Made by a program: the position numbers and the translations under genes. DNA of 64,000 nt, from the IMG/VR virus record IMGVR_UViG_3300032312_001770, positions 1 through 64,000 of that record; one strand, 5' to 3'. Positions 16,506 to 61,028 of the stretch are shown here, one piece after another. How positions within the stretch are numbered: the stretch's first letter is position 1; the number at the start of each line of letters is the position of its first letter. This DNA is from a virus. Its lineage: Duplodnaviria > Heunggongvirae > Uroviricota > Caudoviricetes. The notes beneath the pieces were generated by a model, which worked only from the letters and a program-made list of their open reading frames with translations, had not been told where the DNA came from and made no database searches.

Positions 16506-16506
16506 A

Positions 16507-16890: not shown

Positions 16891-16895
16891 TGTTA

Positions 16896-18725: not shown

Positions 18726-18753
18726 TTTACAAAGATAGTTAATTTTTTATTAA

Positions 18754-28651: not shown

Positions 28652-28673
28652 GATTAATTCTACCAGAAAAAGA

Positions 28674-28705
28674 AAAGCCTCAGATTTATCTGAGGCTTTT
28701 TTTAT
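28674..28705 (+). terminator. rho-independent terminator (AAAGCCTCAG-loop-CTGAGGCTTT then T7)
   Basis: Direct reading; immediately 3' of the S1 gene. Confidence 0.7.
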
Positions 28706-29204: not shown

Positions 29205-29231
29205 TTTTTTGTATTGGTATATATTAATTTT

Positions 29232-36549: not shown

Positions 36550-36693
36550 TTAATATATACTTTACAAAAAATTTCTAATATTTTATGCCTAATAAATTAC
36601 AATTTTATAACGACAGTGATATCGGTTACGATATTGAATGGCACACAGATGAGTTAATGGATGAAGTTGAAATAGAAGAACAAATAGAACAAG

Positions 36694-37656
36694 ATGAAGA
36701 AGAACTTAAAAAAGTATAACGATTTTATTAATGAGTCTTTAGTTGCTAAGCCAAAATTAACTAAGCCAGAATTGGATACTATTATAAGTAAAATTATTTT
36801 AAAAGTACCTGGAAACTGGAAAGAAAAGATATCTGATTTAAGAGATGAATTTGAAGAATCAGTAGTCAATATGGCTGATTTTTTTCCTGGTTGGTTTTCT
36901 GATATGTGTAAAAGAAAAGATGCTAATCCTGAAGGTGATTACCAAGAAATGCAAAAACTACTTGATAAGAAAGGTTGGAATTTTGAATCAATTAAAAATC
37001 TATTCAGTGAAGAAGTTAATAAATTAGTTGATAAAGATTTTACTGGCTGGTTTAATAGTTATGGTCAAATAGGAAGTAAAAATGGTCATTGTGACGTTTA
37101 TCTTTATTTTACTGCTAAAAATTTAGGATTAAATACAGATATTGTTTCTTTAGGTGGTGATGGTTGGGCCAATTATAACGAAGGTGATGAGATGTATATA
37201 AGATATAGATATGGTTATCATCAAACTAAATATGGTCAATTAATGCTAGACCAAATAGGTTATACAGTAGAACAATTCAGAGAAGAAGCCTTAGTTTATT
37301 TACAACAAGATATTGAAGATAATTGGAATAATATGATTTCATCAAGTGTTATGCGTAATGGTGTAATTAATAAAGTTCCTGTTAGAAGATCTGACTTAAA
37401 TGATAATACGATAAAAAATTTAACTTCTTTTTTAAAATCTTCAATTCAAATAGAAGAATATACTTTAGTTGAAGATGATAGAATGATTATATACTCAAAT
37501 GAGATTGCTAATGATATTAATAAGGCTTTTCCAGATACAACAACATCAGAAGAAATATCATCTGGTATAGTTAAGTATTTAGAATGGGCTGGAACTGATA
37601 TTGAAGTTGTTGATGGTGATGTTATCATCTGGGGTAAATTCAAAGTTGACTTCTAA
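36694..37656 (+). CDS. hypothetical protein with a T4 internal-protein-like N-terminus (MKKNLKKYNDFINES)
   Basis: 320 aa; TTAATATATAC element at 36550-36560. Confidence 0.5.
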   Translation: MKKNLKKYNDFINESLVAKPKLTKPELDTIISKIILKVPGNWKEKISDLRDEFEESVVNMADFFPGWFSDMCKRKDANPEGDYQEMQKLLDKKGWNFESIKNLFSEEVNKLVDKDFTGWFNSYGQIGSKNGHCDVYLYFTAKNLGLNTDIVSLGGDGWANYNEGDEMYIRYRYGYHQTKYGQLMLDQIGYTVEQFREEALVYLQQDIEDNWNNMISSSVMRNGVINKVPVRRSDLNDNTIKNLTSFLKSSIQIEEYTLVEDDRMIIYSNEIANDINKAFPDTTTSEEISSGIVKYLEWAGTDIEVVDGDVIIWGKFKVDF

Positions 37657-40315: not shown

Positions 40316-40873
40316 TTAGTAGTTAGTTTTTACCCACTCAATTAATTTAAGTAAGTTCTCAGTATTGTGGGGATATTTGTCTAATAAAGATTCTAAGAAT
40401 TTTAATCTACCTTCTTTGTATAGATTACCATAAGCTTTGAATTCTTCGTGAATACCATTTTCCCACTCTAATAATTGGTCAAAGTCTCTTTCTACGATAC
40501 TCATATCATAGTAATTAAACGACTCTGAAAGGTTTGTTGTAGCTTCGTGAGTCTTTGTATCTAAAATCATTTGTTTTACTTCTAAAACGTCTGTATTTGA
40601 TTTATCAGAGCAACATTCCATAAAGAAGTCAGCTGACTTTTCTTCGTTATCACTTTTCATTGGATCGTAAACACAATCGTGAAAGAGAGCAGTTAACATT
40701 AACTTTTCATATTCTTTTTCAGAATATTTTGATTTACTTTCATTGATTTGGTCAATCACATCATTTAAGTGATTTAGAGTGTGATAAGCTCTGTGTGATT
40801 CATTCCACATAGATAGTAATGTATTAACATCACATTTGATATTCCATTTGTTAAGTAATTCTTGTAAATTCAT
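40316..40873 (-). CDS. HD-domain phosphohydrolase
   Basis: H...HD metal-binding pattern: AYHTLNHLNDVI ... LTALFHDCVYDP. Confidence 0.55.
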   Translation of the reverse strand: MNLQELLNKWNIKCDVNTLLSMWNESHRAYHTLNHLNDVIDQINESKSKYSEKEYEKLMLTALFHDCVYDPMKSDNEEKSADFFMECCSDKSNTDVLEVKQMILDTKTHEATTNLSESFNYYDMSIVERDFDQLLEWENGIHEEFKAYGNLYKEGRLKFLESLLDKYPHNTENLLKLIEWVKTNY

Positions 40874-40896: not shown

Positions 40897-41157
40897 TTAT
40901 ATATTAAAAAGTCGTTTTATGGTTTCTTTCCTTAGTCTTGCTCTCTCATATTTACTATGAAGGTGTTTCCAAGCCATTAAAGAAGCTGTGGCACTTGATT
41001 TACCAGTTTGTCTACCTTTCAAAATCATAATTTGTTTACTACTATTTAGGTATCTACTAAATAAATCAATAGCTTCCTTATTTGTATTCATATAATCTTT
41101 TAATTTTTTCTTTTCGTCTTTCAATTTTGCCTCTATACTTACGAACATTCTTAACAC
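40897..41157 (-). CDS. hypothetical protein
   Basis: 86 aa. Confidence 0.3.
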   Translation of the reverse strand: MLRMFVSIEAKLKDEKKKLKDYMNTNKEAIDLFSRYLNSSKQIMILKGRQTGKSSATASLMAWKHLHSKYERARLRKETIKRLFNI

Positions 41158-42043: not shown

Positions 42044-42778
42044 TTAAATATTTTTTAAATTGTTTTTAACTTTTTCCATGCCAGTTGATGCCAATTCTTG
42101 ATAATGAGTAAATAGATGTGTCCTATATTCTGGTACATAGAAATCAGGATCTGATAAATCTACATAGTATAACTTAGCACTTTCTTTAGTCAAAAATGGA
42201 ATTGTATTAGCCGGTGATACTTTCATTGAAGTTCCAACAACAATACAAACATCACATTCTTTAGCCGCTTCTGTAGCCATATCAACAAAATCAGGATCTA
42301 GATTTTCACCAAACCAAACAATATGAGGTCTTAGTTGAGAACCACTTGTTGGACATTTATCTCCAATATTAATTGGATTATATCCCACATCAACAACTGT
42401 GTCTAATGGTGATGTTTTATGTTCATACATACAGCCTCTAGCTTTTGTTAGTTCACCATGTAAGTGAATAATATTAGTTGAACCTGCTCTTTCGTGTAAA
42501 TCATCAACATTCTGAGTTACAACAGTTACATCAAAATCTTTTTCTAATTCAGCAATTATTTTATGCGCCAAATTTGGCTCAACATCTTTCATTTGAGCAC
42601 GACACATATTGTAGAAATTAAGAACTTTTTCTTTATCTCTACGCCAACCATCAGGTGTGGCAACATCTTCAATTTTGTGATTAAACCAAAGTCCATCATC
42701 ACCAGTTCTAAAAGTAGCAACGCCACTTTCAGCTGAAACTCCTGCTCCAGTAAAAATCAATACTTTTTTCTTATCCAT
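42044..42778 (-). CDS. Sir2-family NAD-dependent protein deacylase
   Basis: VLIFTGAGVSAESGVATFR NAD-binding motif, HG motif (IIHLHGE), zinc ribbon Cys pairs; 244 aa. Confidence 0.8.
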   Translation of the reverse strand: MDKKKVLIFTGAGVSAESGVATFRTGDDGLWFNHKIEDVATPDGWRRDKEKVLNFYNMCRAQMKDVEPNLAHKIIAELEKDFDVTVVTQNVDDLHERAGSTNIIHLHGELTKARGCMYEHKTSPLDTVVDVGYNPINIGDKCPTSGSQLRPHIVWFGENLDPDFVDMATEAAKECDVCIVVGTSMKVSPANTIPFLTKESAKLYYVDLSDPDFYVPEYRTHLFTHYQELASTGMEKVKNNLKNI

Positions 42779-42865
42779 ACTATTTTACAAAGTTAATTAA
42801 ATAAAGTTTAATAACAAAGAAAGTCTTAATAAATAATATATACATAAAATCTCTTTGTTAAATAG

Positions 42866-45800
42866 ATGGCAACATATTCAGTCGATATAAATGTTAGAAA
42901 GAAAATATTTAATATTCCAATAGATCTTATTGGTGTTAGTTATACTGAACCTCGTAGTAATGTTCCTACTTTAACAAATTCAAGTATTAGCGCTATTGCT
43001 AATGTAATATCAACAAAGCCACAGTTAATAACTAGAGCTCAATTACAAAATCTTGGTAATAATATTAATCTTGTTGGTTATGATCCATTAATTGGACTTG
43101 TTACAAATTCAAATAAAACATTTAGTCCTAAATTACTAAACTGGGTTGAGCCTTATGATTTAAACGCGAGTGGTACATACAAAACTACTTTCTATACAGA
43201 AGTAAACACTGGGTTAAAAGTTGGAGATAAAGTATTTATATTAAATGGTAACTATGATAGTGATTTATTAATTCAAAATAATAAATATAAAAAAGGAAGA
43301 GATGGTTATAAAGTTCTATATGTTGATAATTGTAAAATTACCTTAGATATAGATTATACCGGAGTTCTTCCTTATAAGTCAAGTATTGATGATGATTTTA
43401 TCAAAGTATATTATATTAGAAATCAGTCAGAGTTTTTACATGCTAATAGGTCAGTGACTACAAAAAGTGGTAAGTTTGAAAATAAGTTTAGTTATTACAA
43501 CAATAATATAATTTATGTTGATGCCGTTTATTCAACATCTGAATTTTGGGGTAGAAATACAGGTGTTGCTGGGCCAGGATTTTATGTAAGAAGTTCATCA
43601 GCAACTTGGACAAGTATTACATCACCATTTACCACAACCGGTTCTTATTCATATTCAACACAATCAAATGCAAATAAAGTAAAAATAATGAACGGTGACT
43701 TTACTTATAATGGTAAAGAATACAAAGAAGGATTTATTTATAAATGGTTTGTTGGTCCAACTCAATCTGAGTGGATAACTGATGTGACTTATTTTCCACC
43801 TTACATATCTAAAAGTAATTTTAGAGATGGTGTTTTTAATGGGGAATTAAATTCAGGTATATTTGGTCAATATTATAAAAAAATTAACTGGTTTGGTAAT
43901 GGCTCTGTTTGGAACACAGGAACACTTATTAACACAAATTGGCAAAAAGGTACTTTAGATTCTTTATATACCGCCTCTCAAAGTTATTTTTCCAGTTTTG
44001 ATAATAATGGTTTACCATACCAAAAAGCTAACTCACCTAACAATGCTGGTAGAGGTTACAATTTTGTTTTAAATTCTAACATTAATCAATCAACAGTTGT
44101 TAATGGATCTATTTATTCAACAATATTTGGAACACATTCTAATGCAACTTATTCAATTGTAGAAAATGAACTATTAGAATATAGCACAACTTATTTAAAT
44201 ACTATCAAAAGTGCTTTTTTCAATAAATGTGAATTTAATAATTCATTTATTGAAAATTCAGAATTAAAAAATACAATATCTAATAACTCTAAGTTTGAAA
44301 GAGTAAAGTCTATAAACTCTTATTTTAATAAATCTGTTTTAAAAGACTCAAGCTATAATAGTGATAATATTATAAAAATATTTGCTTATGATGAATTAAC
44401 CGCATCTGAAAGTTCAAGTTTACCTGGTTTAACATACAGTAACATAAATGATGTAGTTCAAAAAGTTTATAAATTCTATATTGATAAAAATGGATATGAG
44501 AGACTTAGAACAGGTGATGCTTTTTATCTAAAAGGTATTAAAATTAATAACAATAGTAAAAATGTAATTAATTTCTTTGATAAAAAGTTTAAAATAGGTT
44601 CTTGGACGGAATACATTGAGAGTAATTTTGGAACAGTAGCAAATGGCAAAAGAGGATATCAATATTCTGCTTTTTTATCATCACCATTAGATAACAATCT
44701 CAAATTTACAAGTGCTACATTTTCAGAGACTTCTGGTCTAAAATATCAAACAATTGCTTATTCTAATAATGTTAATAGTAACTACTACTCAATTGATTTA
44801 TGGGTAAGTAATTATGATATAAACAATAATAATACTGCAGGTGAAAATTTAAACTTCAATTCAGATATGTCTGTTTATGATGCTAATTCACTACAAGGAC
44901 CAAATAGTTTAGGAAATATAATTGATGTAACATCAGCTTATATTGTTGATGCTGATTTTGATAGTGGTTTAATTGAGAACTCTGATTGGAATAGTGGATC
45001 TCACATAGAATCAAATAATGATAATAATATTACAATACCATCACTATCTGGTGGTACCTATAGTCTTTCTATTAATAGTTCTAATTATATTGTTGCAACA
45101 ACATCATATAATTCTAATTACTCTGAATCTAATTTAATAAGTATAGGTGATATTGTTTTCTTAGACTCTGTTGACTTTCAACCATCTCCAAAAATTATAA
45201 CAACCACTAGTAGTTTGTTTCCAGATACACAAGTTGGATTTACAACGTTTTTTACTTTTACTCAATCGTATGATAATATTTTAATAACCGGTTCTTCGTC
45301 TACAACATCATTTGATGGTACTTTTGATTTATTTTATGAAAGTGGCACTTATCCAACCTCAACATTAATAGATAATCTATTAGGTAAATATATGGATTAT
45401 AACACCACATATAACTTTAGCATACCACTTTCCGGTGTTAGTGCTAGTAATTCTATACGTTTTTATATTAGTGATGGTGGTTTAGATAATTTGAATTTTC
45501 AAATAATAAATTTAAATGATTCTTCAAGAATTCCAGACACTTACAAAGTTATGTCAAATACTAATGGTGTTTATCAATTAAAAGAAATAGGAACTGTTAG
45601 TAACATAATTAGTTTATCTGCTTCTAATGGTTCTTTTTATACAAAGAATGCTCAGAACAGATATGGTCATATTAAAAAGTTAAAAATTGACAAAACAAAT
45701 ATTAAATCAGGATTTTTAAGAAGGTCTTATATAACAGGTTCATTAATACAAAATATAGATTTGAACTACTTAGATAAAGATTTAACTAATTTAGAAAATA

Positions 45801-48424
45801 TTAAAAGCTTAGTTGTAACTGATTCAATATTCTCAGATAACGGAAATATATTATCTAATGCAACATATGAAAACTCTTTCTTCTTAAATGATGGATCAGA
45901 TATATGGAATAGTGGTATTATACAAAACTCTATATGGGTTAATGGTACATTTAGTAACGGTGTTATTAGAGATTCAAGATGGATTAACGGTAAATTTTTA
46001 AATGGTTGGTTCTATAATTCAAGAACATTTAATGGTAATGCAAATGTTTCAAATCCTTATTACTATTCAGAAAATATAAACTCTTATTATAAAAATGGTG
46101 GATTGCCTAATAATAGAAATTCTTGGCAGAATGGTACTTTTGTTGATGGTGAGTTTTACAAGAGTGATTGGGAGTTTGGTACATTTAGTAATGGTAGATT
46201 CTACTATTCTAATTTCTATAACGGTTATATTAACAATGGTGTTCTAGGAAATAATCAAGTATCAACATTAGATACCAGAATATACAACGGAACGGTAAGT
46301 TATGCTACTGTTGATAATGCTACATTATATGCAGTTGATACAAGTTATCCTAAAAATGTTAGTCAGAACATATCTTGGTTAAATGGTAATTTTAATAATG
46401 GTGTATTTGGTTCTGATATAACACAAGGCATTACTCACTCGGCTATTTGGTACAATGGTTCATTCTTTGGTGGTCAATTTATAAGTATGGCTAAATGGAA
46501 AAATGGTACTTTTAATGGTGGTAAGTTTTTATCAGCGTATGGTTGGTCACAAAGTAATTCAACATCTCAATCAGATTATGGTTGGGAAAATGGTGTATTT
46601 AATGGTGGTGAATTTGGTAATGCTAATGGTTTAACTAACTCAACTTGGTATAAAGGCGAGTTTGATGGTGGTATATTTAGAGGAAGAGTTTGGAATGATG
46701 GTGTTTTCACATATGGTGAATTACAAGGCAGTGGTGTAAGTAGTCCAGTATCTGGATTGATTTGTGCAAATGCTAATGCCTTTGTTGATACATTTACCTA
46801 TTCATATTGGGGTCTTTGGAGAAATGGTTTAGTAACCAATACAAAAGACAGACTTATTAAAGATAGAAAGTTTTTTACAAAACAACTTAGATCTGTAAAC
46901 TTAGAAAGATTTAATGCACCACCTAAAACAGCAAAAATTAAAAATGCTTTATGGTTATCAGGTACATTTAGTCACACAAATGGAGAAATGAATAATTCAG
47001 TTTGGTTAGATGGTGCTTTTGAAAAAGGTAATTTTGTTAGTAGTTCATTTAACCCTTATGTCGAAAGAAGTCAACTTAATATATCTCCTACTTTATATAG
47101 TTCAGAATTATTATATAATGGTGGATTTAATCAGGGAACTACGGTATCTAGTGTAGGATGGGCTACTTCATCAGGAATTGGCGTAACCGGACCCTTAGCA
47201 AGTATAAAGTTAAAAATACCATATCTACCGACAGATGCTTTTTTTGGTGAAAATTATTTTGATGCTGGTTTTTGGTTTAATATAACTACATCTGGATTTG
47301 GTAATTTAAGTTTTACTTTTTCTTCAAATACACCAAGTGGACCTGGATTTTTAGATGCAATTTTTCTAGCTATACCAGTGATAGAATCAAGTTCTATAGG
47401 AACCTATTATAATTTAAGTTCTGGTAATGATGGAACTTATGATTATATTTTATTTGAAGCAGCTAATAGTGGATCGGCTTATAATATAACTTCTTTTAAC
47501 TCAAGAACTACAAGCGCTGATCCAGGCGAAGCAAATGGATTTTTTGATAATAATACAAGTGCTATTCCTTCTGCTGTATCGTCTGCTTTTAGTGCTGGAT
47601 TTGGATCTCCAACATTTAGTTTAGCACATTATATTGGTGGATCGGCTTCACCAGGATTATACTTATATAATACAGTTACTAGATTGAATCCAGGTAAATA
47701 TGAATTTGATTTAAATGTACTAACACATTCATCTAATATAAATCTAAAAGTAAATATAGGAACATATTCATATTTTAGTTCATCCGCTCCATTAACTTTA
47801 GGTTCAAATATATTTGAAGCCAAAACAACTACAGGTGGTAGTGTATCAATATATGTTGATACTAATGGATTAGGCGGATCGATATCTATTGATTCTCTTT
47901 CTATAAAAGAAAAGATGAGAACATTTAATTTAAATGATGATACTTGTTATTGGGAAAATGGTACTTTGAATAATAGTGATTTCTATATTTCTCAATGGAA
48001 AAACGGTAAGTTTATTATAGGAACAGCAACCGGTATGATTTGGAAAAATGGTATTTCTAACTATATGAATGCGTTTAATGTTTTCTGGGAAAATGGTACT
48101 TGGAGAAATGGTAACTGGTATGGTTCCTCGTTTGTGTATAATGGTTCAATTACAGAAGACTATGTTTTGCAGATATTAGATAGAGGTGAAGATTGGAGTG
48201 GAACATCATCAGCACATATTTGGAATATATTTTTACAACCTGGTGATTTTGAGGCATCTATATCATCTGTAATAGCCGCTACACCATCTTATGGAGCAAC
48301 CGATGCTGTTTTAGATATAACAGGCTGGGTATCAAGTGGATATGATCCATATTCTATACAAACATTGCCTGTTTTTGAATATGTGAGTATTGAAGATGTG
48401 AGTCCGCCTATATTATCAGGGTAA
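42866..48424 (+). CDS. giant (1852 aa) fibre/structural protein with NG-rich beta-helix-like repeats
   Basis: Repeats of WxNGxFxNGxF / SxWxNGxF between roughly aa 1000-1300; Asn/Ser/Thr-rich. Confidence 0.6.
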   Translation: MATYSVDINVRKKIFNIPIDLIGVSYTEPRSNVPTLTNSSISAIANVISTKPQLITRAQLQNLGNNINLVGYDPLIGLVTNSNKTFSPKLLNWVEPYDLNASGTYKTTFYTEVNTGLKVGDKVFILNGNYDSDLLIQNNKYKKGRDGYKVLYVDNCKITLDIDYTGVLPYKSSIDDDFIKVYYIRNQSEFLHANRSVTTKSGKFENKFSYYNNNIIYVDAVYSTSEFWGRNTGVAGPGFYVRSSSATWTSITSPFTTTGSYSYSTQSNANKVKIMNGDFTYNGKEYKEGFIYKWFVGPTQSEWITDVTYFPPYISKSNFRDGVFNGELNSGIFGQYYKKINWFGNGSVWNTGTLINTNWQKGTLDSLYTASQSYFSSFDNNGLPYQKANSPNNAGRGYNFVLNSNINQSTVVNGSIYSTIFGTHSNATYSIVENELLEYSTTYLNTIKSAFFNKCEFNNSFIENSELKNTISNNSKFERVKSINSYFNKSVLKDSSYNSDNIIKIFAYDELTASESSSLPGLTYSNINDVVQKVYKFYIDKNGYERLRTGDAFYLKGIKINNNSKNVINFFDKKFKIGSWTEYIESNFGTVANGKRGYQYSAFLSSPLDNNLKFTSATFSETSGLKYQTIAYSNNVNSNYYSIDLWVSNYDINNNNTAGENLNFNSDMSVYDANSLQGPNSLGNIIDVTSAYIVDADFDSGLIENSDWNSGSHIESNNDNNITIPSLSGGTYSLSINSSNYIVATTSYNSNYSESNLISIGDIVFLDSVDFQPSPKIITTTSSLFPDTQVGFTTFFTFTQSYDNILITGSSSTTSFDGTFDLFYESGTYPTSTLIDNLLGKYMDYNTTYNFSIPLSGVSASNSIRFYISDGGLDNLNFQIINLNDSSRIPDTYKVMSNTNGVYQLKEIGTVSNIISLSASNGSFYTKNAQNRYGHIKKLKIDKTNIKSGFLRRSYITGSLIQNIDLNYLDKDLTNLENIKSLVVTDSIFSDNGNILSNATYENSFFLNDGSDIWNSGIIQNSIWVNGTFSNGVIRDSRWINGKFLNGWFYNSRTFNGNANVSNPYYYSENINSYYKNGGLPNNRNSWQNGTFVDGEFYKSDWEFGTFSNGRFYYSNFYNGYINNGVLGNNQVSTLDTRIYNGTVSYATVDNATLYAVDTSYPKNVSQNISWLNGNFNNGVFGSDITQGITHSAIWYNGSFFGGQFISMAKWKNGTFNGGKFLSAYGWSQSNSTSQSDYGWENGVFNGGEFGNANGLTNSTWYKGEFDGGIFRGRVWNDGVFTYGELQGSGVSSPVSGLICANANAFVDTFTYSYWGLWRNGLVTNTKDRLIKDRKFFTKQLRSVNLERFNAPPKTAKIKNALWLSGTFSHTNGEMNNSVWLDGAFEKGNFVSSSFNPYVERSQLNISPTLYSSELLYNGGFNQGTTVSSVGWATSSGIGVTGPLASIKLKIPYLPTDAFFGENYFDAGFWFNITTSGFGNLSFTFSSNTPSGPGFLDAIFLAIPVIESSSIGTYYNLSSGNDGTYDYILFEAANSGSAYNITSFNSRTTSADPGEANGFFDNNTSAIPSAVSSAFSAGFGSPTFSLAHYIGGSASPGLYLYNTVTRLNPGKYEFDLNVLTHSSNINLKVNIGTYSYFSSSAPLTLGSNIFEAKTTTGGSVSIYVDTNGLGGSISIDSLSIKEKMRTFNLNDDTCYWENGTLNNSDFYISQWKNGKFIIGTATGMIWKNGISNYMNAFNVFWENGTWRNGNWYGSSFVYNGSITEDYVLQILDRGEDWSGTSSAHIWNIFLQPGDFEASISSVIAATPSYGATDAVLDITGWVSSGYDPYSIQTLPVFEYVSIEDVSPPILSG

Positions 48425-48477
48425 CTAATCAGAATGAAAACAGATAATAAAAATATATAATAAAAATAACTTAAAAA

Positions 48478-51400
48478 ATGACATCATTCATCAGAAGATC
48501 AGGTAGATTAAGTTTACCAGTATCAACCGCACCTACATTTGCACTGGATCCATCCCTTTTTACCAATGCGTTACTTGATTCTGGTTATAGCTATTGGGTA
48601 TATGACGCATTACCGACTCCTGGTAGATTACATGTTGATTCAACTGCTATTGATGGAAGAGCACCAGGTGGAACTGGCGGTGTTAGAGGTATATTTATTT
48701 TAAAACATAACAATCCAAGCGCATATACTTATTCTCCTGATAAAACATATCAAATTATAACTAATACAGTTAATGTTTATGCGACAGCCGCTTCTTTTTC
48801 AGTTAGTTTTAATTGGGGTGACCAATTAAACTATTCAAGAGGAATGACAGCCGCTTATGGCGCTCCCGGCACTGCCACTCAAAGTTTTGTTCATTACTCA
48901 ACACCTCCTGAAAGATTGACAACAAGAAATGATGTTATTTATAAAGCCAATGGTACTTTTAGTAATGCCGGAACTACTCAGAATAATAGAGGGATAGTAA
49001 GCTATACGGTCAATGAACTAGATTTTAGGATTTTAGGATTCTCTTATTATAAAATGCAATACTTTGAATTATCAAGAGAAGAGTTAAAAAATTCACTTGG
49101 TTGGTATTACGATAAACCAAGTGATATATATTTTTGGTATGATAGAGTATCATCAACATCATCAAATGATTCTTTAGGTTATTTTCCAGTTGGTGGTAAC
49201 AATAATAGTAAGGTGGCTAATAAAGGTTATAGACTTAATAACGCAATATATAAATTTGTACCATATACTTATTTTAACTTGAATTTTAACTATCAAAATA
49301 CAACATCTTCACCTTTAAGAGTTTATTTATCACCATCACCACCATCAACATTGATACCTTCTGCTGCAAACTATAATGCCGGTATTTACACACCACCAAA
49401 TGGTAGTACTTTAATAGCCACAATAACTCAGAGTTCTTATGGTACATTCTCTTCTACAGATAGTTCTGTGCCAGTTGGATTTTATGGAATAAGAGGTAAT
49501 CAATATTTAATATTTGTTGGTCCGTTTATGGGCGCGACTTCTTCTTCTAGTGCAACAGCATCTGTATATTTACAAAATATAATAGTTGATGGTGCCTATC
49601 ATCCGGGTAATAACAGACAATATGTAATGACATCTGGACTTACTTACTCAACAACGGTTACTGGTTTAACAGGAGCAACTTACGCAACAATTGTTGGCAA
49701 TGGAAATACTATTAACGCAACATCATCCTTATCAATTGGTAGAATATTTTCAAAAATTGGAAACGGTAGTTTCAAAGCAGGTATATGGGAAAATGGAGTT
49801 TGGAATAGTGGTTGGAGAGTTGATGATGGAATGTTTGAGTTTTATAATGTTACTAGCTTTTTTAGTTATAACAGAAATAAAAGATGGAGAGTTCAAATAT
49901 CGGGGCCTTCTGAATCTGTTTCTAATTTCAATATTGGTGATAATGTCGCCATAGGCAATATTATTGCAATTGATATAAATGAGGATAGAAAATTATTAAA
50001 AGGATATTATACTATTATTAATAAAACATATAATAGTATAGTTGTTGAGTTTGATAATAATTTTCCTATAAGAAGAATTGAAAAAGATTCGGATAATCAT
50101 AGAATCTTTATAACTAAAAATGTTTGGTTGTCTGGTGCATTCTTAAACGGTTATTTCAAAGGAGTTTGGAACTATGGATTATTCAAAGGATATCCTTTAA
50201 TTACTGAGATGTATGATTCTCATTGGATTGATGGTATATTTGATGGTGGACATTTTGTATCAGATCCTTATATACTTCCTGATTTTATAGATACCTTTTT
50301 TAACTCTGGTGGTGTTGGTTTACAATTTGCAACAAATAGCACACCTCACGGTTTAGTGGTTGGTGATTTAATTACTGTTGATAAAAATAACAAATCATTA
50401 AATCCTCAATACGATGGCGATCACAATGTTTTAGAAGTTATTAATAATTACCAAGTAGTAATAGATGTTGATTATGGATCTGATTCAACTTTAGAAGGTG
50501 GTAAGGTTTATATAGATAAGAACAAAGGACTTTTACAAAGAGTTGATTTTAAATCAAATAACGTATCAAAAATAACATCTGCTAATTCCACAGATTCAGG
50601 ATCGGTTTTTGTTTATAATTCTTGGATGGATGTAAATTATGATCCTTCTTATGCCACAAATATTGGAAAACCTCAATCCACATTAAATCCATTATCGAGA
50701 AAATCTTTCTCTGAAAATAATTTATATGGTTATACAACAAATGATGTTTTAGAAAGTAATTCAACATTTAGAGATAGTTTCTCAACAACAATTAGAAGAT
50801 ATAAATTAGGAACAAAGTATAAAATATTTGCTGATTTTATTGGAGATGCTGGTAAATTTGAAGACGAGTTTGGTGGAACATTTAGTGATGCGGAGAGTAC
50901 ATTTTTAAAAGAAGGTTGGACTTTCTCTAGAACAAATATATCATCATTAACATTTTCTAGAACAACTCCTGCTGATAATGAACCATTAATAACTGGTGAG
51001 GAACTAATAGTACAAGCTAGAAATAGTGGAGGTATATTGGATATTACACCATTTAGTGATGATTATATAGCAAACAGAACTTATGAAGAGGTTCAAAAAT
51101 TAAGATATACAAAAGTTGAATTTGATGTAATTACTTTCTCAGGTCCCATAACAACATATGGTGATAATTATAATTATTTATTTACATTTAATAATTTTTA
51201 CAGACAGCCACCTATACACTTCAATAATTTAAACTTAATCATAAGACAGGTTTACACATCTGGTATTAGCTACCGAACAATAGATTATGCTAAATTTTTA
51301 CCGGTATATGAAAATGTGAATCACTTGAATACTAGAAATAAAAAGAAAGTAGAGTATTTCTATAATAAAAGAAATTTAAGTATGAATTTTGCAGGTTTGA

Positions 51401-52104
51401 ATTATCCTCTAAATGGCGATACTTCAGCATCTGAGTATGTAATAGATAACTTACACTTTTATGAGATTGATATGATACCATTTTTTCAATATTTTACAGA
51501 TAATAATATCAATAAAAGTGTTCAAGTTCCATTTCAAGGAATATCACCATTTATTGATTATTCAAATGTTGGATTTAACTTTGTTGATAATCTTACAATT
51601 GGACTAGATAGTATTAGAACAGAGAACTCTAATGATATAGTCAGTGGAGTTGGTGCGGGTATTGGTAACATAGGTAGAGCTACTTCGGGATCTATCGGAG
51701 GAGGAAGTATTTTTACTTCACCCGCAATCGAAGCACCATTATCATCATTAGTAATTGAACCGGGTGGATTTGCTCCACTATTACCATATACAATATTTGG
51801 CGACACATCAACAACTTCTGCTACTATAACAGGTACTATAACAGTCAATACAGCACCAGTTACTATTAATTTAACTTCATCAGCGAGCGGAGGCTCTATT
51901 TTTAGTATCAGATTCACTACGGCTACTTTAGTTATAGGTGGTACTGGAACTATTACGGGTGTTGGTAGAACAATGGTACATAACTCTAATAGTGTGTCAT
52001 CATCAATATCTACTACAAGAACGTTAACACAGAATACAACATACCCTTATACTTTAAGTATAACAAGAACCGGAACAGGATTAGCATCGTTTTCTTTATC
52101 TTAA
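48478..52104 (+). CDS. large (1208 aa) structural protein sharing the same WxNGxF-type repeats
   Basis: FKAGIWENGVWNSGWRV, VWLSGAFLNGYFKGVWNYGLFKGY. Confidence 0.55.
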   Translation: MTSFIRRSGRLSLPVSTAPTFALDPSLFTNALLDSGYSYWVYDALPTPGRLHVDSTAIDGRAPGGTGGVRGIFILKHNNPSAYTYSPDKTYQIITNTVNVYATAASFSVSFNWGDQLNYSRGMTAAYGAPGTATQSFVHYSTPPERLTTRNDVIYKANGTFSNAGTTQNNRGIVSYTVNELDFRILGFSYYKMQYFELSREELKNSLGWYYDKPSDIYFWYDRVSSTSSNDSLGYFPVGGNNNSKVANKGYRLNNAIYKFVPYTYFNLNFNYQNTTSSPLRVYLSPSPPSTLIPSAANYNAGIYTPPNGSTLIATITQSSYGTFSSTDSSVPVGFYGIRGNQYLIFVGPFMGATSSSSATASVYLQNIIVDGAYHPGNNRQYVMTSGLTYSTTVTGLTGATYATIVGNGNTINATSSLSIGRIFSKIGNGSFKAGIWENGVWNSGWRVDDGMFEFYNVTSFFSYNRNKRWRVQISGPSESVSNFNIGDNVAIGNIIAIDINEDRKLLKGYYTIINKTYNSIVVEFDNNFPIRRIEKDSDNHRIFITKNVWLSGAFLNGYFKGVWNYGLFKGYPLITEMYDSHWIDGIFDGGHFVSDPYILPDFIDTFFNSGGVGLQFATNSTPHGLVVGDLITVDKNNKSLNPQYDGDHNVLEVINNYQVVIDVDYGSDSTLEGGKVYIDKNKGLLQRVDFKSNNVSKITSANSTDSGSVFVYNSWMDVNYDPSYATNIGKPQSTLNPLSRKSFSENNLYGYTTNDVLESNSTFRDSFSTTIRRYKLGTKYKIFADFIGDAGKFEDEFGGTFSDAESTFLKEGWTFSRTNISSLTFSRTTPADNEPLITGEELIVQARNSGGILDITPFSDDYIANRTYEEVQKLRYTKVEFDVITFSGPITTYGDNYNYLFTFNNFYRQPPIHFNNLNLIIRQVYTSGISYRTIDYAKFLPVYENVNHLNTRNKKKVEYFYNKRNLSMNFAGLNYPLNGDTSASEYVIDNLHFYEIDMIPFFQYFTDNNINKSVQVPFQGISPFIDYSNVGFNFVDNLTIGLDSIRTENSNDIVSGVGAGIGNIGRATSGSIGGGSIFTSPAIEAPLSSLVIEPGGFAPLLPYTIFGDTSTTSATITGTITVNTAPVTINLTSSASGGSIFSIRFTTATLVIGGTGTITGVGRTMVHNSNSVSSSISTTRTLTQNTTYPYTLSITRTGTGLASFSLS

Positions 52105-53060: not shown

Positions 53061-53370
53061 CTAATATTTGATTAATTTTTTTCTCTCTAAGTAGTGATTT
53101 GTTTGTTTTTTCAAACTCACCTCTTTTATCTTTATATCCACAATCTTTACAAACTGATATACTGTCTTGAGTTGGTTTGGAACCATCTACCGGTATAAAG
53201 AACTTCCAAGATATGTTTTTACTTTTACAATTAGGACAACCCGATAAATCCTCTAAAGGTTTTATAAAGCCGACCTTTTGTAGTTTTCCTAAATCATATG
53301 TTTTATTACTTTGATTTGGAAATAAACTAAGTAACTTATTAATCATTATTTCTGTATTTCTCTTGAACAT
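53047..53370 (-). CDS. zinc-ribbon protein (CPNC...CKDC)
   Basis: Two CxxC pairs. Confidence 0.4.
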   Translation of the reverse strand: MFKRNTEIMINKLLSLFPNQSNKTYDLGKLQKVGFIKPLEDLSGCPNCKSKNISWKFFIPVDGSKPTQDSISVCKDCGYKDKRGEFEKTNKSLLREKKINQILDEFQ

Positions 53371-53527
53371 ACTTAGCTTTATTAATCTCAGCTCTTCTTT
53401 TTACAGATCTTTTAGTGAACTCTTTTCTATCTCTTAATTCTCTAAGAGTTTTAGTTTTGTCCCATTTTCTTTTAAGGGTTTTAAGAGCTTTCTCAATTGT
53501 TGTTCCTTCTACTTTTACTAATAGCAT
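53339..53527 (-). CDS. rpsU: ribosomal protein bS21 homolog
   Basis: 62 aa; MLLVKVEGTTIEKALKTLKRKWDKTKTLRELRDRKEFTKRSVKRRAEINKAKYV parallels the bacterial S21 pattern (MPVIKVRENE..ALRRFKR.CEK.G.L.E.RRR.FYEKPT..RKR). Confidence 0.7.
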   Translation of the reverse strand: MLLVKVEGTTIEKALKTLKRKWDKTKTLRELRDRKEFTKRSVKRRAEINKAKYVQEKYRNND

Positions 53528-53591
53528 ACTAAAATCTTTTTTTGTATATTATATATTTAATATATAGTTATATCAATAAAATATAACATAG

Positions 53592-55118: not shown

Positions 55119-55135
55119 AAATATATTAAAATAGA

Positions 55136-55167
55136 AAAAGCCTCTGATTTCTCAGAGGCTTTTTTTA
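55136..55167 (+). terminator. rho-independent terminator (AAAAGCCTCTGA-loop-TCAGAGGCTTTTTTT)
   Basis: Direct reading of the sequence. Confidence 0.7.
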
Positions 55168-55455
55168 TATTCCTAAGTCATTTAATCTTTTCTGTCTAAT
55201 AATTTGTGTTAGTGAATGAGTGTCATAAATACTAACTTCATACTTACTCATACAGTAGTCATCAATCATTTTATCAAATTTATTATAATCAAAAGCTTCA
55301 ACTTTATCACCAATTAATAACTCATATAAATTAACTGAGTATTTACGTTCTTCATCTCTAGCATTAGCCGCTTTCTCATAAATCTGGCGACTAACGGCGT
55401 CCTTCTTTTCTTTCTTAGCGTTAAGATATAACTCTAATATGTTATCAATTTCCAT
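55165..55455 (-). CDS. hypothetical protein
   Basis: 96 aa. Confidence 0.4.
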   Translation of the reverse strand: MEIDNILELYLNAKKEKKDAVSRQIYEKAANARDEERKYSVNLYELLIGDKVEAFDYNKFDKMIDDYCMSKYEVSIYDTHSLTQIIRQKRLNDLGI

Positions 55456-57193
55456 AATTAAGATTAACTTCTTCTATTGATGAAAACACTTCTTTATTAA
55501 TCTTTAATATTCTATCAAACATCTCTTGGTTCAAAATAGCATGGTGAACAACAAAGATATTAATGTTATAATCATTTGCGAATGATTTTAAGAGCGCCAA
55601 AATAGAATCTATACCTTCGATATCAATTGATGAGAAAACCTCATCTAAGAAGAGTATATTGATATGACGTTTAGTTCTGATTAATTTTAAGTAAGCAATT
55701 AAGATACTAATATTTACTTTCTTAGTTTCACCAGTTGATAAAGAATCGTGTTCAATTTGAGAACCTAATTGTTTAATCTCGGCTGTGAAAGTCTCATCTA
55801 ATTTCACCTCAAATGGTAAACCCATCTTTTTAATATTCTCAGCAATAAAGTGATTGATTGGTTTGATAATACCAGATATGATAGATTTTTTAACGCCATC
55901 TTCACCAAAGATTCGATTTAACTCTTTGTAGTAAAGTTCTTTTTCTTTACAAACTGTGATATTATCAGTACTAACTACTTTCTTTTCTTGAAGTTCTTCA
56001 ATAGTATCTTGAAACTCTTGAATATTGACAGAAGGTGCTGTATTAACTGGAACAGTTTGACTTGCTTTCTTTTGGTTTAATTTATCAATTTCTGATTTAT
56101 AGTTTTTTAATAAGTAACTTAAATCATTAAAAGTAGTAGTTGTAGTTTCGGATAAACCTTTTAGCTTAACTTGTCTTTCTCTAACTTTAGTAACATTAGC
56201 TTCAATTTCAGCTTTGATATTTTCAAATCCTAATTTCTTTTCTTCTAAAGCTGTTCTTAAATTAGCAAAGTGAACTGAATCAAAATCTGTTTTACAAGTT
56301 GGACACTTACCAGAATCATATAAATCTAATTCTCTTTGAACATTCTTAATATCATTCTGACAATTAATAAGTTGTCTTTTTTCTTTATCCATTTCATCAG
56401 AAAGTTCAGAATCCTTTTCTTTGATTCTATCTATCTTTTCTTTCAAAGATTTATAATCATCTTTTCTAGAATTCATCTCACCAGTGATTCTATCAATCTC
56501 TGCTTGAATATCTTCTTTCTCTCTTTCTAAGGCTAATCTAGCCTCTTCTTTTTGTCTTTCAATGGCTTTATCAATAGACCTTTGAATAGATAAAATTGAG
56601 TCATCTAAGGTTCTAATTTCAGCGTCAAAAGAAGCGGCTCTAGTTTTATTGTTTTTTGCGATATCTTTTAAGATACCATTTAAGATATTGATAACTTCTA
56701 AGTTAAACAACTTGTCTAAAAGAAGTTGTTTTTCTTCATTTGATAAAGAGATAAAGTTTTTGAAGTCATTGATAGACATTGAGATAAATGATTTGAAAGT
56801 TTCGATATCCATACCGATATACTTTTCAATCTTTTCATCAATGTTGCCTTTACCGGCTCTTTCATTGACTACTCCATTTTCGGTAAGTTCTAAGACACCA
56901 GGTGATATGCCTCGTTTAATTTCAACATCGGTACCTAAAGAATTAAATTTAATTCTATTAAGTAGTTCACCGTTAATTCTGTTTGGAAGTGTTGATAAAG
57001 TGGCCCATTTCTTTTTACGACCTCTAACTTTACCATAAAGTGTGTAATCGAAGGAATCTAACAAAGATGATTTACCTGCTCCGTTATTTCCAACAAGAAG
57101 AATCAATTCTCCTTTTTCTGTATTTAATTTTAAGACTTGTTCGTTATTACCATAACTTTTGAATCCTCTAATTCCTAATTCACTAATAAGCAT
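55445..57193 (-). CDS. SbcC/Rad50-like recombination ATPase (T4 gp46-like)
   Basis: Walker A LLVGNNGAGKSSLLD, long coiled coil with a CPTC zinc-hook-like motif, C-terminal LFLDEVFSSID (Walker B/D-loop). Confidence 0.65.
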   Translation of the reverse strand: MLISELGIRGFKSYGNNEQVLKLNTEKGELILLVGNNGAGKSSLLDSFDYTLYGKVRGRKKKWATLSTLPNRINGELLNRIKFNSLGTDVEIKRGISPGVLELTENGVVNERAGKGNIDEKIEKYIGMDIETFKSFISMSINDFKNFISLSNEEKQLLLDKLFNLEVINILNGILKDIAKNNKTRAASFDAEIRTLDDSILSIQRSIDKAIERQKEEARLALEREKEDIQAEIDRITGEMNSRKDDYKSLKEKIDRIKEKDSELSDEMDKEKRQLINCQNDIKNVQRELDLYDSGKCPTCKTDFDSVHFANLRTALEEKKLGFENIKAEIEANVTKVRERQVKLKGLSETTTTTFNDLSYLLKNYKSEIDKLNQKKASQTVPVNTAPSVNIQEFQDTIEELQEKKVVSTDNITVCKEKELYYKELNRIFGEDGVKKSIISGIIKPINHFIAENIKKMGLPFEVKLDETFTAEIKQLGSQIEHDSLSTGETKKVNISILIAYLKLIRTKRHINILFLDEVFSSIDIEGIDSILALLKSFANDYNINIFVVHHAILNQEMFDRILKINKEVFSSIEEVNLNYGN

Positions 57194-57908: not shown

Positions 57909-58244
57909 TTAATATAGTTTACCAGTTTCTAAGTAGTAAGTATTATGTGTAGTTATCATCTCTAAAGTATCATGTGATAATCTACATTTTTCAATAAATG
58001 ATTTTACATCATCATCTGTTAAATCAAACCACTCGCCATTTATTTTTTTACTTTTGAATGTTCTGTGTAACTGTGATTCTATTTTAGTTCCCCATTTTGA
58101 CTTAAAATAATCAATAACATACATCTCAGAACCGTTACCAGTTTTCAACTCTTTTACTCTTTTAGAGACATCTCTTCTTGTATAACCTATTTTATACAAT
58201 CTTCTTCCTTCAAATTCGGCGCATATCAAATAAACATTTATCAT
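57909..58244 (-). CDS. hypothetical protein, possibly GIY-YIG/T5orf172-like (YLI..YKIGYT)
   Basis: Weak motif match only. Confidence 0.3.
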   Translation of the reverse strand: MINVYLICAEFEGRRLYKIGYTRRDVSKRVKELKTGNGSEMYVIDYFKSKWGTKIESQLHRTFKSKKINGEWFDLTDDDVKSFIEKCRLSHDTLEMITTHNTYYLETGKLY

Positions 58245-58274
58245 TAGAGTATATATTACTCTAACATGTTTTCA

Positions 58275-58977: not shown

Positions 58978-59292
58978 TTAGTAGTTAAAGTTTAAGAACT
59001 CATACTCTTTTAGTATCAATTGTTTAACTTTCTCAAAGTTTTCATCAGATAAAGAATAATACTTTTTCTGAAACCAACTAATCATATGATTAATAATAAC
59101 ATCCTCTGCCTCACCGTTTCCAGTTCTTGAATAATATTCGGGATCTTCTTCATCTGGTTTCCATTGATTAATTTCATCATTTAACATATCTTGTATTTCA
59201 GATTGGTCTGGAAATCTTCCTTTAATTTTAGCAATAGCAAACTCAGGATCTTGTTGTTCTTGATTTTCGTTATATTTTTTTAAGTATTTCAT
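58978..59292 (-). CDS. hypothetical protein (MKYLKKYNENQ N-terminus)
   Basis: 104 aa; GTATATATTAA element immediately upstream. Confidence 0.45.
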   Translation of the reverse strand: MKYLKKYNENQEQQDPEFAIAKIKGRFPDQSEIQDMLNDEINQWKPDEEDPEYYSRTGNGEAEDVIINHMISWFQKKYYSLSDENFEKVKQLILKEYEFLNFNY

Positions 59293-59307
59293 AATGTATA
59301 TATTAAT

Positions 59308-60053: not shown

Positions 60054-61010
60054 TTATTTTAATTTTATATGTATGTAAACATAATATGATGTTGGTTTAA
60101 CACTAATTAAAACTCTACTGCTCCATTTCTTAGTAAGCAACCAAGTTGTGAAGTTATTTTTAATATTCATAAATTCACCTTCATCAAATTTACCATTATC
60201 CCATTTACCTAAACCTTTATATCCAAAAGATATTATCTTATCTTGAATTTTCACAACATCTTTTGATTCGTGATAACCAGGATTAAATCCTTTCATATCT
60301 GATTTAATCTTACCTAATGTCATTACATCAGCTAAACTTAGATTAACTAACTCTTTCTTTAATGAGTGAGCTGATTTAGATTCAATTTGACAAATCCATT
60401 TAATAACAGATTGATTCAACTTAAATTGACCAATTGGTGTTAGTACATCATAATGTAAACCATATTCAAAACTACCATCACATTTGATACCAAAGTATAA
60501 ATCAACTTCATTCTTTTGATAATCAACATGGTCTAAGTATCTACTTAAAGACTTGAATCTTGAAAATACTTGTTTTACATGTTCTGATTGTAGATTAGGG
60601 TAGTAATAGTATAATAAAAAGTCATCTGGAGATTTAGACCAGTTTGGTCCTAATTCTTTTTGACCTAAACTGGTTAAAGCTTTTAGGAAAGAAGTAAATA
60701 TACCTTTTCCAGCAACTGTAATTTCTGATTCAGTTAATTCTTCTAAATCAGTTGAAACTAAGAACTCAGGTTCTTTTTCTTCAATACCATTTTGTAAGTA
60801 ATTATCAATTTGATATTTAATTTCATTTTTAGTATTATCATCTAAGATATTAATAGCATTTGATAAGTCAATAGAAGCGTCAGAATCTTTTGTATAACGA
60901 GCTACTATGTTTCTAACATACTCATCATCTATAAGAGATTCAATCCACTCTCCAAGTGAATTAAAACCATTGAGATTTTCTTTTATAAATTCTAAATATC
61001 TTTTAATCAT
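60054..61010 (-). CDS. hypothetical protein (MIKRYLEFIKENLNGF N-terminus)
   Basis: 318 aa; GTATATATTAAATT upstream at 61014-61027. Confidence 0.45.
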   Translation of the reverse strand: MIKRYLEFIKENLNGFNSLGEWIESLIDDEYVRNIVARYTKDSDASIDLSNAINILDDNTKNEIKYQIDNYLQNGIEEKEPEFLVSTDLEELTESEITVAGKGIFTSFLKALTSLGQKELGPNWSKSPDDFLLYYYYPNLQSEHVKQVFSRFKSLSRYLDHVDYQKNEVDLYFGIKCDGSFEYGLHYDVLTPIGQFKLNQSVIKWICQIESKSAHSLKKELVNLSLADVMTLGKIKSDMKGFNPGYHESKDVVKIQDKIISFGYKGLGKWDNGKFDEGEFMNIKNNFTTWLLTKKWSSRVLISVKPTSYYVYIHIKLK

Positions 61011-61028
61011 AATGTATATATTAAATTG

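Follow-up and report, generated by a model that had tools for sequence, protein, structure and literature searches.

A probable phage promoter box set close to start codons in a lineage of Bacteroidetes megaphages

The 64,000-nucleotide stretch analysed here (hereafter the window; positions 1 to 64,000 of IMG/VR record IMGVR_UViG_3300032312_001770, Caudoviricetes) carries an A/T-only element, TTAATATATA with the 8-mer core AATATATA, that recurs in sense orientation upstream of start codons and that we hold, with high confidence, to be a real, conserved and abundant phage promoter box. Its consensus, TT-AATATATA-N4-A, would represent the core promoter of a megaphage lineage, consisting of a single A/T box in the -10 region. 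A phage-specific promoter comparable to the T4 late TATAAATA box had been put forward in the original prediction, and on both counts our analysis concurs: location, orientation, fixed spacing, conservation at orthologs and clade-wide use agree, and the T4 comparison is apt for a single A/T box in the -10 region without a -35 element. The composite statement, in which transcription starts at a fixed A downstream of the box and a gp55-type sigma factor reads the promoter, is probable, the assignment of the reader being its weakest link.

Distribution and conservation of the box

Window counts were compared with those of dinucleotide-preserving shuffles (100 for the 10-mer). The 10-mer TTAATATATA occurs 11 times against 2.07 expected, a count that none of the 100 shuffles reached, the 11-mer TTAATATATAC six times against 0.25 and the 12-mer TTTAATATATA(C/G) in four exact copies against 0.12, an enrichment over shuffled background in line with the original prediction. 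All 11 exact 10-mers are intergenic and sense-oriented to a start codon 4-34 nt away. The core AATATATA shows no overall over-representation (19 copies versus 16.7 expected); 14 of the 19 lie wholly within the 8.5% of the window that is non-coding, making it the top non-tRNA 8-mer enriched in such DNA, and 17 stand upstream of a gene in sense orientation while two are intragenic. The core is redistributed to intergenic DNA and is not more frequent overall. Versions of the 10-mer with one mismatch show no excess in the window either (48 versus 43 expected).

The window has 30% G+C, is densely coding on both strands and, judged by its sequence, comes from a megaphage related to 630-735 kb Bacteroidetes phages. 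The product of its open reading frame (ORF) 14420-15187, a sigma factor of the extracytoplasmic function (ECF) type, is 75% identical to a protein of LR756502.1 (642 kb) and 71% identical to one of LR745206.1 (635 kb), with remoter kin in 636-735 kb genomes of a huge-phage survey and in the Lak megaphages. These survey genomes and Lak form the 'Mahaphage' clade, whose predicted hosts are Bacteroidetes (PMC7162821). Window genes read well with the standard code, unlike those of Lak. The contig closest to the window is a 476-kb one from IMG/VR, whose copy of the window's 1055-amino acid (aa) gene product is 91% identical, and the lineage is evidently abundant in public metagenomes.

Genome-scale tests were made on the whole of LR756502.1, which is complete and has 7.7% of intergenic DNA. 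As many as 215 of its 339 AATATATA copies are intergenic (p ~1e-148), and an unbiased k-mer scan returned this 8-mer as the top one by far. Distances to the ORF start fall into two classes, 3-8 nt (n=120) and 17-26 nt (n=67), with nine copies at 9-16 nt; the mode is 4 nt (n=55), followed by 5 nt (n=30), 6 nt (n=17), 7 nt (n=11) and 8 nt (n=5). The short class takes up 35% of motif copies against 1.5-11% for the reverse orientation and for 13 control 8-mers of the same composition, none of which displays either spacing peak. Distances in a pooled set (the window and 40-kb pieces of four relatives), counted between the 3' end of the core and the first following ATG that opens a frame of 50 codons or more, are also bimodal, with 19 copies at 3-8 nt, 21 at 17-25 nt and two between. 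The original prediction had stressed copies placed exactly 3 nt before the ATG. That class is real, and the TTAATATATAC-NNN-ATG context described for it is present at 9708, 59296 and 61014, but a second class with a predicted leader of 13-21 nt, to which most window copies belong, had been overlooked. The 17-mer said to be shared by two of these sites likewise exists, though at 59290-59306 and 61008-61024.

Alignment of gene-proximal sites in LR756502.1 reveals T at the two positions before the box in 69% and 83% of cases. Between -50 and -3 relative to the box start, the information content stays at or below 0.4 bit throughout, both among the 120 and 67 aligned sites and among the pooled 43; since nothing further upstream of the TT is conserved, the promoter would have no -35 element. 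On the other side, A occupies the fifth place after the box in 84% of long-spacing sites versus about 40% of copies without a nearby gene, and in the 4-nt class it is the A of the ATG that falls there. Copies without a nearby ORF show neither the flanking TT nor the downstream A signal. In the window, if the 4-5 nt class is set aside, 10 of 12 copies have A as the fifth base (counted by eye).

Conservation across relatives points the same way. Upstream of the 1055-aa gene, TTAATATATA is the sole invariant block in five relatives, down to 47-53% protein identity and at a spacing of 21-24 nt. It is also kept before the orthologs of gene 9722-11359 and of a 34-aa ORF, and has been gained or lost before other genes. 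In the TAG-recoded genome Lak-A1 the motif has no intergenic or spacing signal and so is not common to all Mahaphages. An IMG/VR scan with TTAATATATACNNNATG was uninformative, the matches listed including scattered single ones in unrelated contigs. Could TATATA-rich strings simply accumulate in AT-rich intergenic DNA and have no function? The low G+C content, the unremarkable total of the core and the one-mismatch count would suit this explanation. We nevertheless give it next to no chance, as it leaves unexplained the spacing peaks that are missing from control 8-mers and from the reverse orientation, the sense orientation of every exact 10-mer, a block that is invariant upstream of diverged orthologs, and a flanking TT and downstream A limited to gene-proximal copies.

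The copies found in the window are the following (distances to the start codon are in nucleotides).

1027-1036 (+): ATAATATATA, one mismatch; 25 before the ATG of 1062-2018, a collagen-like tail-fibre protein; fifth base after the box is A
3067-3076 (-): exact TTAATATATA; 12 before the ATG of the 24-aa ORF 2980-3054(-); heads a unit of tRNA-Arg and four tRNA-Ser
4768-4777 (-): exact TTAATATATA; 5 before the ATG of the 34-aa ORF 4658-4762(-); kept at the ortholog in relative L002
7927-7936 (+): exact TTAATATATA; 21 before the ATG of 7958-8842, at a divergent junction
9708-9717 (+): exact TTAATATATA; 4 before the ATG of 9722-11359; putative leaderless class; kept at the ortholog in relative L002
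19047-19056 (+): exact TTAATATATA; 21 before the ATG of 19078-22245 (1055 aa)
29218-29227 (-): exact TTAATATATA; 25 before the ATG (29192) of 28722-29192(-)
35525-35534 (+): CAAATATATA, doubtful; 52 before the primase-like gene 35587-36549; probably not a motif promoter, being the reverse complement of the host-type TATATTTG box of the minus-strand gene 34887-35501
36550-36559 (+): exact TTAATATATA; adjoins the stop of 35587-36549; 25 before the ATG of the 44-aa acidic ORF 36585-36719
40898-40907 (-): exact TTAATATATA; 24 before the ATG of 40316-40873(-), phosphohydrolase-like
42833-42842 (+): ATAATATATA, one mismatch; 23 before the ATG of the 1852-aa ORF 42866-48424, at a divergent junction
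48450-48459 (+): AAAATATATA, one mismatch; 18 before the ATG of the 1208-aa ORF 48478-52104
53550-53559 (-): TAAATATATA; 22 before the ATG of 53339-53527(-), ribosomal protein bS21
53557-53566 (+): exact TTAATATATA, within TTTAATATATAG (53556-53567); 25 before the TTG at 53592 and 31 before the ATG at 53598 of gene 53592/53598-55118
58250-58259 (-): GTAATATATA, one mismatch; 5 before the ATG of 57909-58244(-), a GIY-YIG/T5orf172 protein; putative leaderless class
59297-59306 (-): exact TTAATATATA(C); 4 before the ATG of 58978-59292(-); putative leaderless class, in a 15-nt gap between same-strand genes
61015-61024 (-): exact TTAATATATA(C); 4 before the ATG of 60054-61010(-); putative leaderless class, in an 18-nt gap between same-strand genes

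Of the eight positions reported earlier, those at 7926, 9707, 29217/8, 36550, 59296 and 61014 stand, while two were 8-9 nt off: the copy placed at 19038 lies at 19046/19047, and the headline copy, given as 53548-53559 on the plus strand, is found at 53556-53567, the former range covering the minus-strand TAAATATATA. Absent from the earlier set were the exact copies at 3067(-), 4768(-) and 40898(-) and the one-mismatch copies at 1027, 42833, 48450 and 58250(-).

Predicted start site and leader length

We infer that the conserved A five bases 3' of the box is where transcription would begin. With this A as +1, the box would occupy -12 to -5 and the TT -14/-13. In the short class, transcription would start on the A of the ATG and yield a leaderless mRNA or one with a leader of 1-4 nt, whereas the long class would carry an A-rich leader of about 13-22 nt; intermediate leaders would be almost absent, being presumably unfit for either initiation mode in a genome that lacks Shine-Dalgarno pairing. 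The arrangement suggests that the ATG's own A is often the first transcribed base, which would leave the message without a leader, and the 3-nt spacing highlighted in the original prediction is compatible with leaderless mRNAs. Two points weigh against this geometry. The start site, and hence the leaderless state, is deduced from spacing and one conserved A, and sites at 5-6 nt spacing have no enrichment of A at the fifth base, so that the start must there shift by 1-2 nt.

The lack of Shine-Dalgarno sequences noted earlier is borne out: a Shine-Dalgarno-like 4-mer at -20 to -4 precedes two of 66 window genes, against a background of 7.8%, and A-rich DNA stands before the genes, as in Bacteroidetes. 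Very short or absent leaders occur in only 3.7-5.5% of mRNAs in Bacteroidetes hosts; in Bacteroides thetaiotaomicron the commonest 5' untranslated region measures 23 nt and leaders below 10 nt make up 3.7% of mRNAs, while leaderless mRNAs account for 5.5% in Flavobacterium psychrophilum (PMC9723704, PMC7366714). A comparable arrangement is known from Actinobacteria and Deinococcus, whose leaderless genes (GeneMarkS-2 group C) have a -10-type box at a fixed distance of about 10 nt from the start codon when they come first in an operon, which likewise implies a 5'-AUG mRNA (PMC6028130). Group C promoters, however, are host sigma-70-type TANNNT boxes of high-GC bacteria, whereas the present box is phage-specific, belongs to a phage whose presumed host phylum is rarely leaderless, and comes with a second discrete leader-length class.

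The same spacings bear on two explanations that require no bacterial-type -10 box. In the first, the element would act in the RNA, as a translation enhancer or ribosome-binding substitute (perhaps linked to bS21) or as an RNase site. Missing Shine-Dalgarno sequences, A-rich upstream regions, a phage-encoded bS21 and a distance of 4-8 nt from the ATG, similar to that of a Shine-Dalgarno sequence, are all in keeping with it. Yet two discrete spacings separated by a near-empty gap of 9-16 nt, with the farther one at 17-26 nt, do not suit a ribosome-binding element, and such a role is therefore hard to reconcile with the data. The non-Shine-Dalgarno motif of Bacteroidetes precedes all genes, first and internal (GeneMarkS-2, PMC6028130), while the box precedes only a subset. 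Furthermore, the box occurs in either orientation at divergent junctions, is exchanged for a recognised promoter box at an orthologous site (see below), is purged as a core from coding DNA, and heads self-contained units made of box, short ORF and terminator. These units support the promoter reading because they need a promoter directly before the leader ORF. A role in the RNA consequently strikes us as very improbable.

In the second, the element would be an archaeal or eukaryotic TATA box bound by a TBP/TFB-like factor, with the start some 22-25 nt downstream, so that the 17-26 nt class would be the leaderless one. The box centre does lie about 25-27 nt before the ATG in the long class, as compared with about 26 nt for the archaeal leaderless box (group D; PMC6028130), and a figure legend of the huge-phage survey lists TFIIB (PMC7162821). 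We reject this explanation, to which we leave only a minute probability, because the short-spacing sites have the wrong geometry for it: in this class, the larger of the two (4-8 nt; 120 sites in LR756502.1), transcription would start inside the ORF. It would also leave the conserved A five bases after the box without a role, no TBP/TFB-like factor was found among the window proteins, and no archaeal-type polymerase signature in six frames of LR756502.1 and the window. An Escherichia coli-type -35/-10 identity was rejected as well, consensus scans for the enterobacterial sigma-70 promoter (TTGACA-N17-TATAAT) giving 123, 104 and 118 sites versus 105, 122 and 122 in shuffles, without enrichment.

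Beyond the phage promoter itself lies a wider proposal, which we rate at slightly under an even chance: the box would be the hub of a lineage-wide expression design that combines a gp55-type promoter fused to the start codon, leaderless mRNAs, their own ribosome entry and tRNA-leader control. More than 100 genes per genome would then be expressed as 5'-AUG leaderless mRNAs, that is, about 13% of crude gene calls and approximately two thirds of motif promoters in LR756502.1, as against some 4-5% in the presumed host phylum. Phage messages would possess their own ribosome entry route, perhaps tuned by bS21-type phage translation factors, and ribosome-sensing leader peptides made from box promoters would open tRNA clusters only during tRNA shortage. 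If the spacing has been read correctly, a large share of phage genes would do without leader-dependent initiation. In the presumed host phylum Shine-Dalgarno pairing is absent and leaderless mRNAs are few, and the matter bears on how huge phages 'redirect translation'.

Candidate reading factors and the host-type promoter class

A polymerase motif of the DFDGD/NADFDGD type was found in none of the six frames of LR756502.1 or the window. A phage without its own RNA polymerase must redirect the host core enzyme, and we propose that this would be accomplished by a late sigma of the gp55 family, the promoter being a T4 late variant, possibly clamp-activated, for late or bulk phage expression. LR756502.1 encodes T4-like gp43, gp44 (E=2e-17), gp46, gp47, UvsW, TerL, portal, sheath, major capsid protein (MCP) and gp4, and gp46 is also encoded within the window (55445-57193). 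Its 121-aa gp55-like protein (217128-217490) matches PHROG 234, 'late sigma transcription factor' (E=9.7e-6), is colinear with residues 10-120 of T4 gp55 (pairwise E=5e-4) and is devoid of region 4. Homologs of this protein in jumbo phages XacN1 and Xoo-sp13 are annotated as late sigma. Of 286 related IMG/VR stretches, the best 80, with the above-mentioned 476-kb contig among them, have copies that are 93-98% identical; this is an unusually tight conservation, other proteins of these phages being 50-90% identical. Iyer et al. placed the Lak megaphages among polymerase-less T4-like jumbo phages with gp55-like (minimal) and RpoD-like sigmas and gp33 (PMC7824862).

Comparison with the T4 late promoter (TATAAATA; gp55, gp33 and the gp45 clamp) brings out shared and divergent traits. 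Both rely on a single 8-bp A/T-only box, for which the -10 position is predicted in the phage, show no -35 conservation and have A/T-rich DNA just downstream (PMC2988020). The densities are similar, 187 boxes per 642 kb in LR756502.1 corresponding to one per 3.4 kb and T4 having about the same, and internal promoters directly before single genes are found in both; the megaphage lineage also shares with T4 its replication and virion genes, a gp55-family sigma and a gp44-like clamp loader. Unlike in T4, the phage box is TT plus AATATATA rather than TATAAATA, would lie at -12 to -5 rather than -13 to -6, and is fused to start codons in a large gene class. T4 late mRNAs have Shine-Dalgarno leaders. 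In our view, the box is best filed as a T4-type '-10-only' late promoter with a different sequence and with a geometry that would imply widespread leaderless expression.

Several observations weigh against a gp55-type late promoter. The consensus TTAATATATA differs from TATAAATA, and the latter has no positional enrichment in LR756502.1 (277 copies; 3.2% and 5.4% in the two spacing classes, as for controls). A T4 gp45 query gave no tblastn match (gp33 was not searched). The gp55-like gene of the window's own genome would lie outside the window, its presence being deduced from relatives, and both sigma genes track the motif equally across relatives, so that co-occurrence cannot separate them. 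Finally, the genes behind the motif are functionally mixed (tail fibre, giant ORFs, bS21, GIY-YIG, phosphohydrolase, tRNA leaders), which leaves a strict 'late' label unproven; we use it by analogy only. In LR756502.1, the box stands 19 nt before the portal and terminase ATGs and 29 nt before the major capsid ATG, and gp43 and gp47 have no box. Co-expression of bS21 with structural genes in other Bacteroidetes phages (PMC9723584) lends weak support to 'late' expression. A T4 rpbA query returned no credible tblastn match.

The original prediction had assigned the motif to the sigma factor encoded at 14420-15187 and, right in kind, was probably wrong about the sigma. That protein is of the ECF type with regions 2 and 4, the motif has no -35 element, and the gp55-family late sigma of the relatives is the better match. 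In one version of this assignment, the ECF-type sigma would itself be made from host-type promoters and then switch on TTAATATATA. Its gene belongs to a 7.6-kb minus-strand block (11348-18996) where TAnnTTTG boxes of the host type occur but TTAATATATA does not, which is compatible with such a cascade. Orthologs occur in every motif-using relative, and the Lak ortholog is about 30% identical in a phage without the motif pattern; the gp55-like sigma, however, follows the same phylogenetic gradient. It is well established that ECF sigmas depend on a conserved -35 element placed at a set distance from a short -10 element, the former of the AAC-type and the latter of the CGT-type (see also PMC9723704, motif SM6). 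The window protein is a group-4 sigma with region 4 (Pfam r2 and r4_2; NCBIfam sigma70-ECF, 81 bits versus a cutoff of 42.9), but the 187 aligned sites display no -35 signal and the box no G/C. It is a poor fit because ECF promoters are bipartite and none is seen here, and about 190 targets per genome would make an unusually large regulon. We thus consider the ECF sigma an unlikely reader and clearly favour a gp55-like sigma over it, other factors accounting for the remaining weight.

A second class of promoters may be recognized in these phages. The element TA(t/a)(a/c)TTTG matches the -7 box of Bacteroidetes and forms the second enriched intergenic k-mer family of LR756502.1, where TAnnTTTG boxes peak 4-5 nt before ATGs. 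It is conserved before the DNA ligase gene and two other genes in relatives, and at four divergent junctions (about 1000, 19000, 35540 and 42800) it takes the arm opposite to that of the motif. Host-type boxes of the window are the following.

18730-18737 (-): -7 box TATCTTTG, 4 nt before the ATG of the NAD-ligase gene 16896-18725(-); kept in relatives L001-L004
18994-19001, 12152-12159 and 996-1003 (all -): boxes similar to TATCTTTG
42788-42795 (-): box TAACTTTG, on the other arm of the divergent junction with the 42833 motif copy

They lie 3-9 nt before ATGs and therefore host-type promoters, too, seem set for leaderless or near-leaderless mRNAs. At the Ser/Arg-rich short ORF, the two classes have been swapped: TTAATATATA in the window (3067-3076(-)) corresponds to TATATTTG in LR756502.1 (375393-375400). 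An early/late division between the two classes is suggestive only, most proteins encoded by motif and host-box genes having no annotation.

This second class is the touchstone for the proposal that the box is a strong host promoter variant, read early or constitutively by an unmodified host sigma-A holoenzyme. In F. psychrophilum the sigma-A -7 box TAnnTTTG sits at -12 to -5 (PMC9723704), and the Bacteroidetes sigma-A promoter (-7 box and weak -33 TTTG) has the same 8-bp length and the same deduced position as the phage box (PMC9723704, PMC7366714); in a tentative alignment the two have A(-11), T(-8) and T(-6) in common (PMC9723704). Both stand 4-5 nt before ATGs in the phage, and at one orthologous site TTAATATATA and the host-type TATATTTG have been interchanged. 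On the other hand, the phage box does not contain the TTTG of TAnnTTTG, including its terminal G (PMC7366714, PMC9723704), and constitutes a separate, far more abundant k-mer family. The published F. psychrophilum motif variants all revolve around TAnnTTTG (PMC9723704), and the separate host-like TATATTTG class kept alongside argues for two specificities. Reading by host sigma-A thus appears improbable, rather more so than by the ECF sigma.

Early promoters of phiKZ-like jumbo phages (in AR9, AAATATATATTAT-N6-G(+1)), read by a virion multisubunit polymerase, likewise possess a single conserved A/T-only element near the start and no -35, and the AR9 consensus contains AATATATA (PMC5312081). These phages encode their own polymerases; in the megaphage lineage no DFDGD motif was found, and the literature assigns it to the T4-like phages without a polymerase (PMC7824862). 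The AR9 start is 11 nt after the AATATATA string and would here fall inside the ORF, and AR9 leaders measure 26-491 nt.

In the literature searched, we found no description of a promoter of uncultivated 500-735 kb megaphages, nor of this motif, which is no proof of novelty. The motif provides a first transcription map, with about 190 phage-type and 30 host-type promoters predicted in the 642-kb relative, from which operons and regulatory classes become predictable from sequence alone, and it would tie megaphages mechanistically to T4-type late transcription. Short, strong and portable, the element might also serve as an expression signal in Bacteroidetes once its sigma has been identified.

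tRNA-leader units and neighbouring genes

Two box copies of the window head units in which the box is followed by a short ORF, a strong terminator and a tRNA sub-cluster (2924-3076(-) and 4600-4777(-)).

2980-3054 (-): short ORF MKTIKTSSKSSSRSSKMSEVRLCS, 24 aa, Ser/Arg-rich putative leader peptide; followed by the strong intrinsic terminator 2924-2963(-)
4658-4762 (-): short ORF MTTNRTHKHFSKSSKWFSNQFGTERVLRDLKDVI, 34 aa, putative leader peptide; followed by the terminator 4600-4626(-), then tRNAs Phe, His, Phe, Trp, Trp and four Lys

The former peptide (MKTIKTSSKSSSRSSK...) stands before one Arg and four Ser tRNAs, and the latter (...HKHFSKSSKWF...) before the Phe, His, Phe, Trp, Trp and four Lys tRNAs. 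Defined as a promoter, an ORF of 17-35 codons, a strong terminator and a tRNA cluster, six such units were identified in LR756502.1 (372915-373090, 375400-375560, 388948-389105, 401142-401330, 421958-422125 and 422937-423055), with these leaders.

KHKHFSKLNKWF: before tRNAs Phe, His, Lys
TSSRSRSSKS: before tRNAs Arg, Ser, Arg
IETIGYTGYEGAYSE: before tRNAs Glu, Tyr, Ile, Gly, Ala
NLNMNLNTLTVVNNTL: before tRNAs Asn, Leu, Val, Ile, Thr
VVVDQDQPD: before tRNAs Pro, Asp
QQQQQQQ: before four tRNA-Gln

The amino acids that abound in the short ORFs are exactly those served by the downstream tRNAs. The true pairing of leaders and clusters is the best of 720 permutations, with several single units significant by themselves at p values from 5e-8 to 2e-3. 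Several units also allow an alternative fold, an antiterminator in which the 5' terminator arm is paired with the 3' portion of the short ORF, provided that the terminator itself is blocked. These units look like ribosome-mediated attenuation gating phage tRNA genes by demand: a stalled ribosome would signal tRNA shortage and transcription would run into the matching tRNA genes. The two units in the window thereby suggest demand-controlled viral tRNA expression. We found no description of tRNA-leader attenuators in the literature searched, which again does not prove novelty.

Among neighbouring genes, the four giant plus-strand ORFs 19078-22245, 22261-26364, 42866-48424 and 48478-52104 encode 1055, 1367, 1852 and 1208 aa, and three of them have a promoter box. 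None has a Pfam family or a relative among PDB sequences, and a PHROG match, of unknown function, was obtained for the first only. They were considered as a phage RNA polymerase and rejected, having no Pfam or PDB match, no polymerase-type PHROG and no DFDGD. The bS21 gene 53339-53527(-) (Pfam E=6e-11; above the NCBIfam cutoff) is located at a divergent junction with back-to-back box copies. The 44-aa ORF 36585-36719(+) is very acidic (…DELMDEVEIEEQIEQDEEELKKV) and extends, in a different frame, past the start of the following gene (36694). Other genes of the window encode a gp46/SbcC-like protein as in T4 (55445-57193(-)), an NAD-dependent DNA ligase (16896-18725(-)), a Sir2-like protein (42044-42778(-)) and a 640-aa SPFH/Band-7 protein (30834-32756(-)). 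Strong G+C-rich hairpins with T-runs are found at convergent gene ends (28670-28703 and 55135-55164), the former reading as a terminator on both strands.

The tRNA array 2472-4600(-) is larger than default ARAGORN shows, as Rfam and relaxed ARAGORN add tRNAs at 2571-2657, 2660-2746, 2750-2834, 3298-3438, 3451-3562 and 4103-4185. Several tRNAs of the array reach 110-140 nt and contain inserts within or close to the anticodon loop, and tRNA-like sequences at about 3105-3233 and 4500-4585 are uncalled or ambiguous. The string TTTTTGTTTTTATATGG follows both leader terminators (4590-4606(-) and 2915-2931(-)) and leads directly into the following tRNA or tRNA-like gene at its 5' end; it may belong to the terminator tail, serve as a signal for processing or act as a weak promoter.

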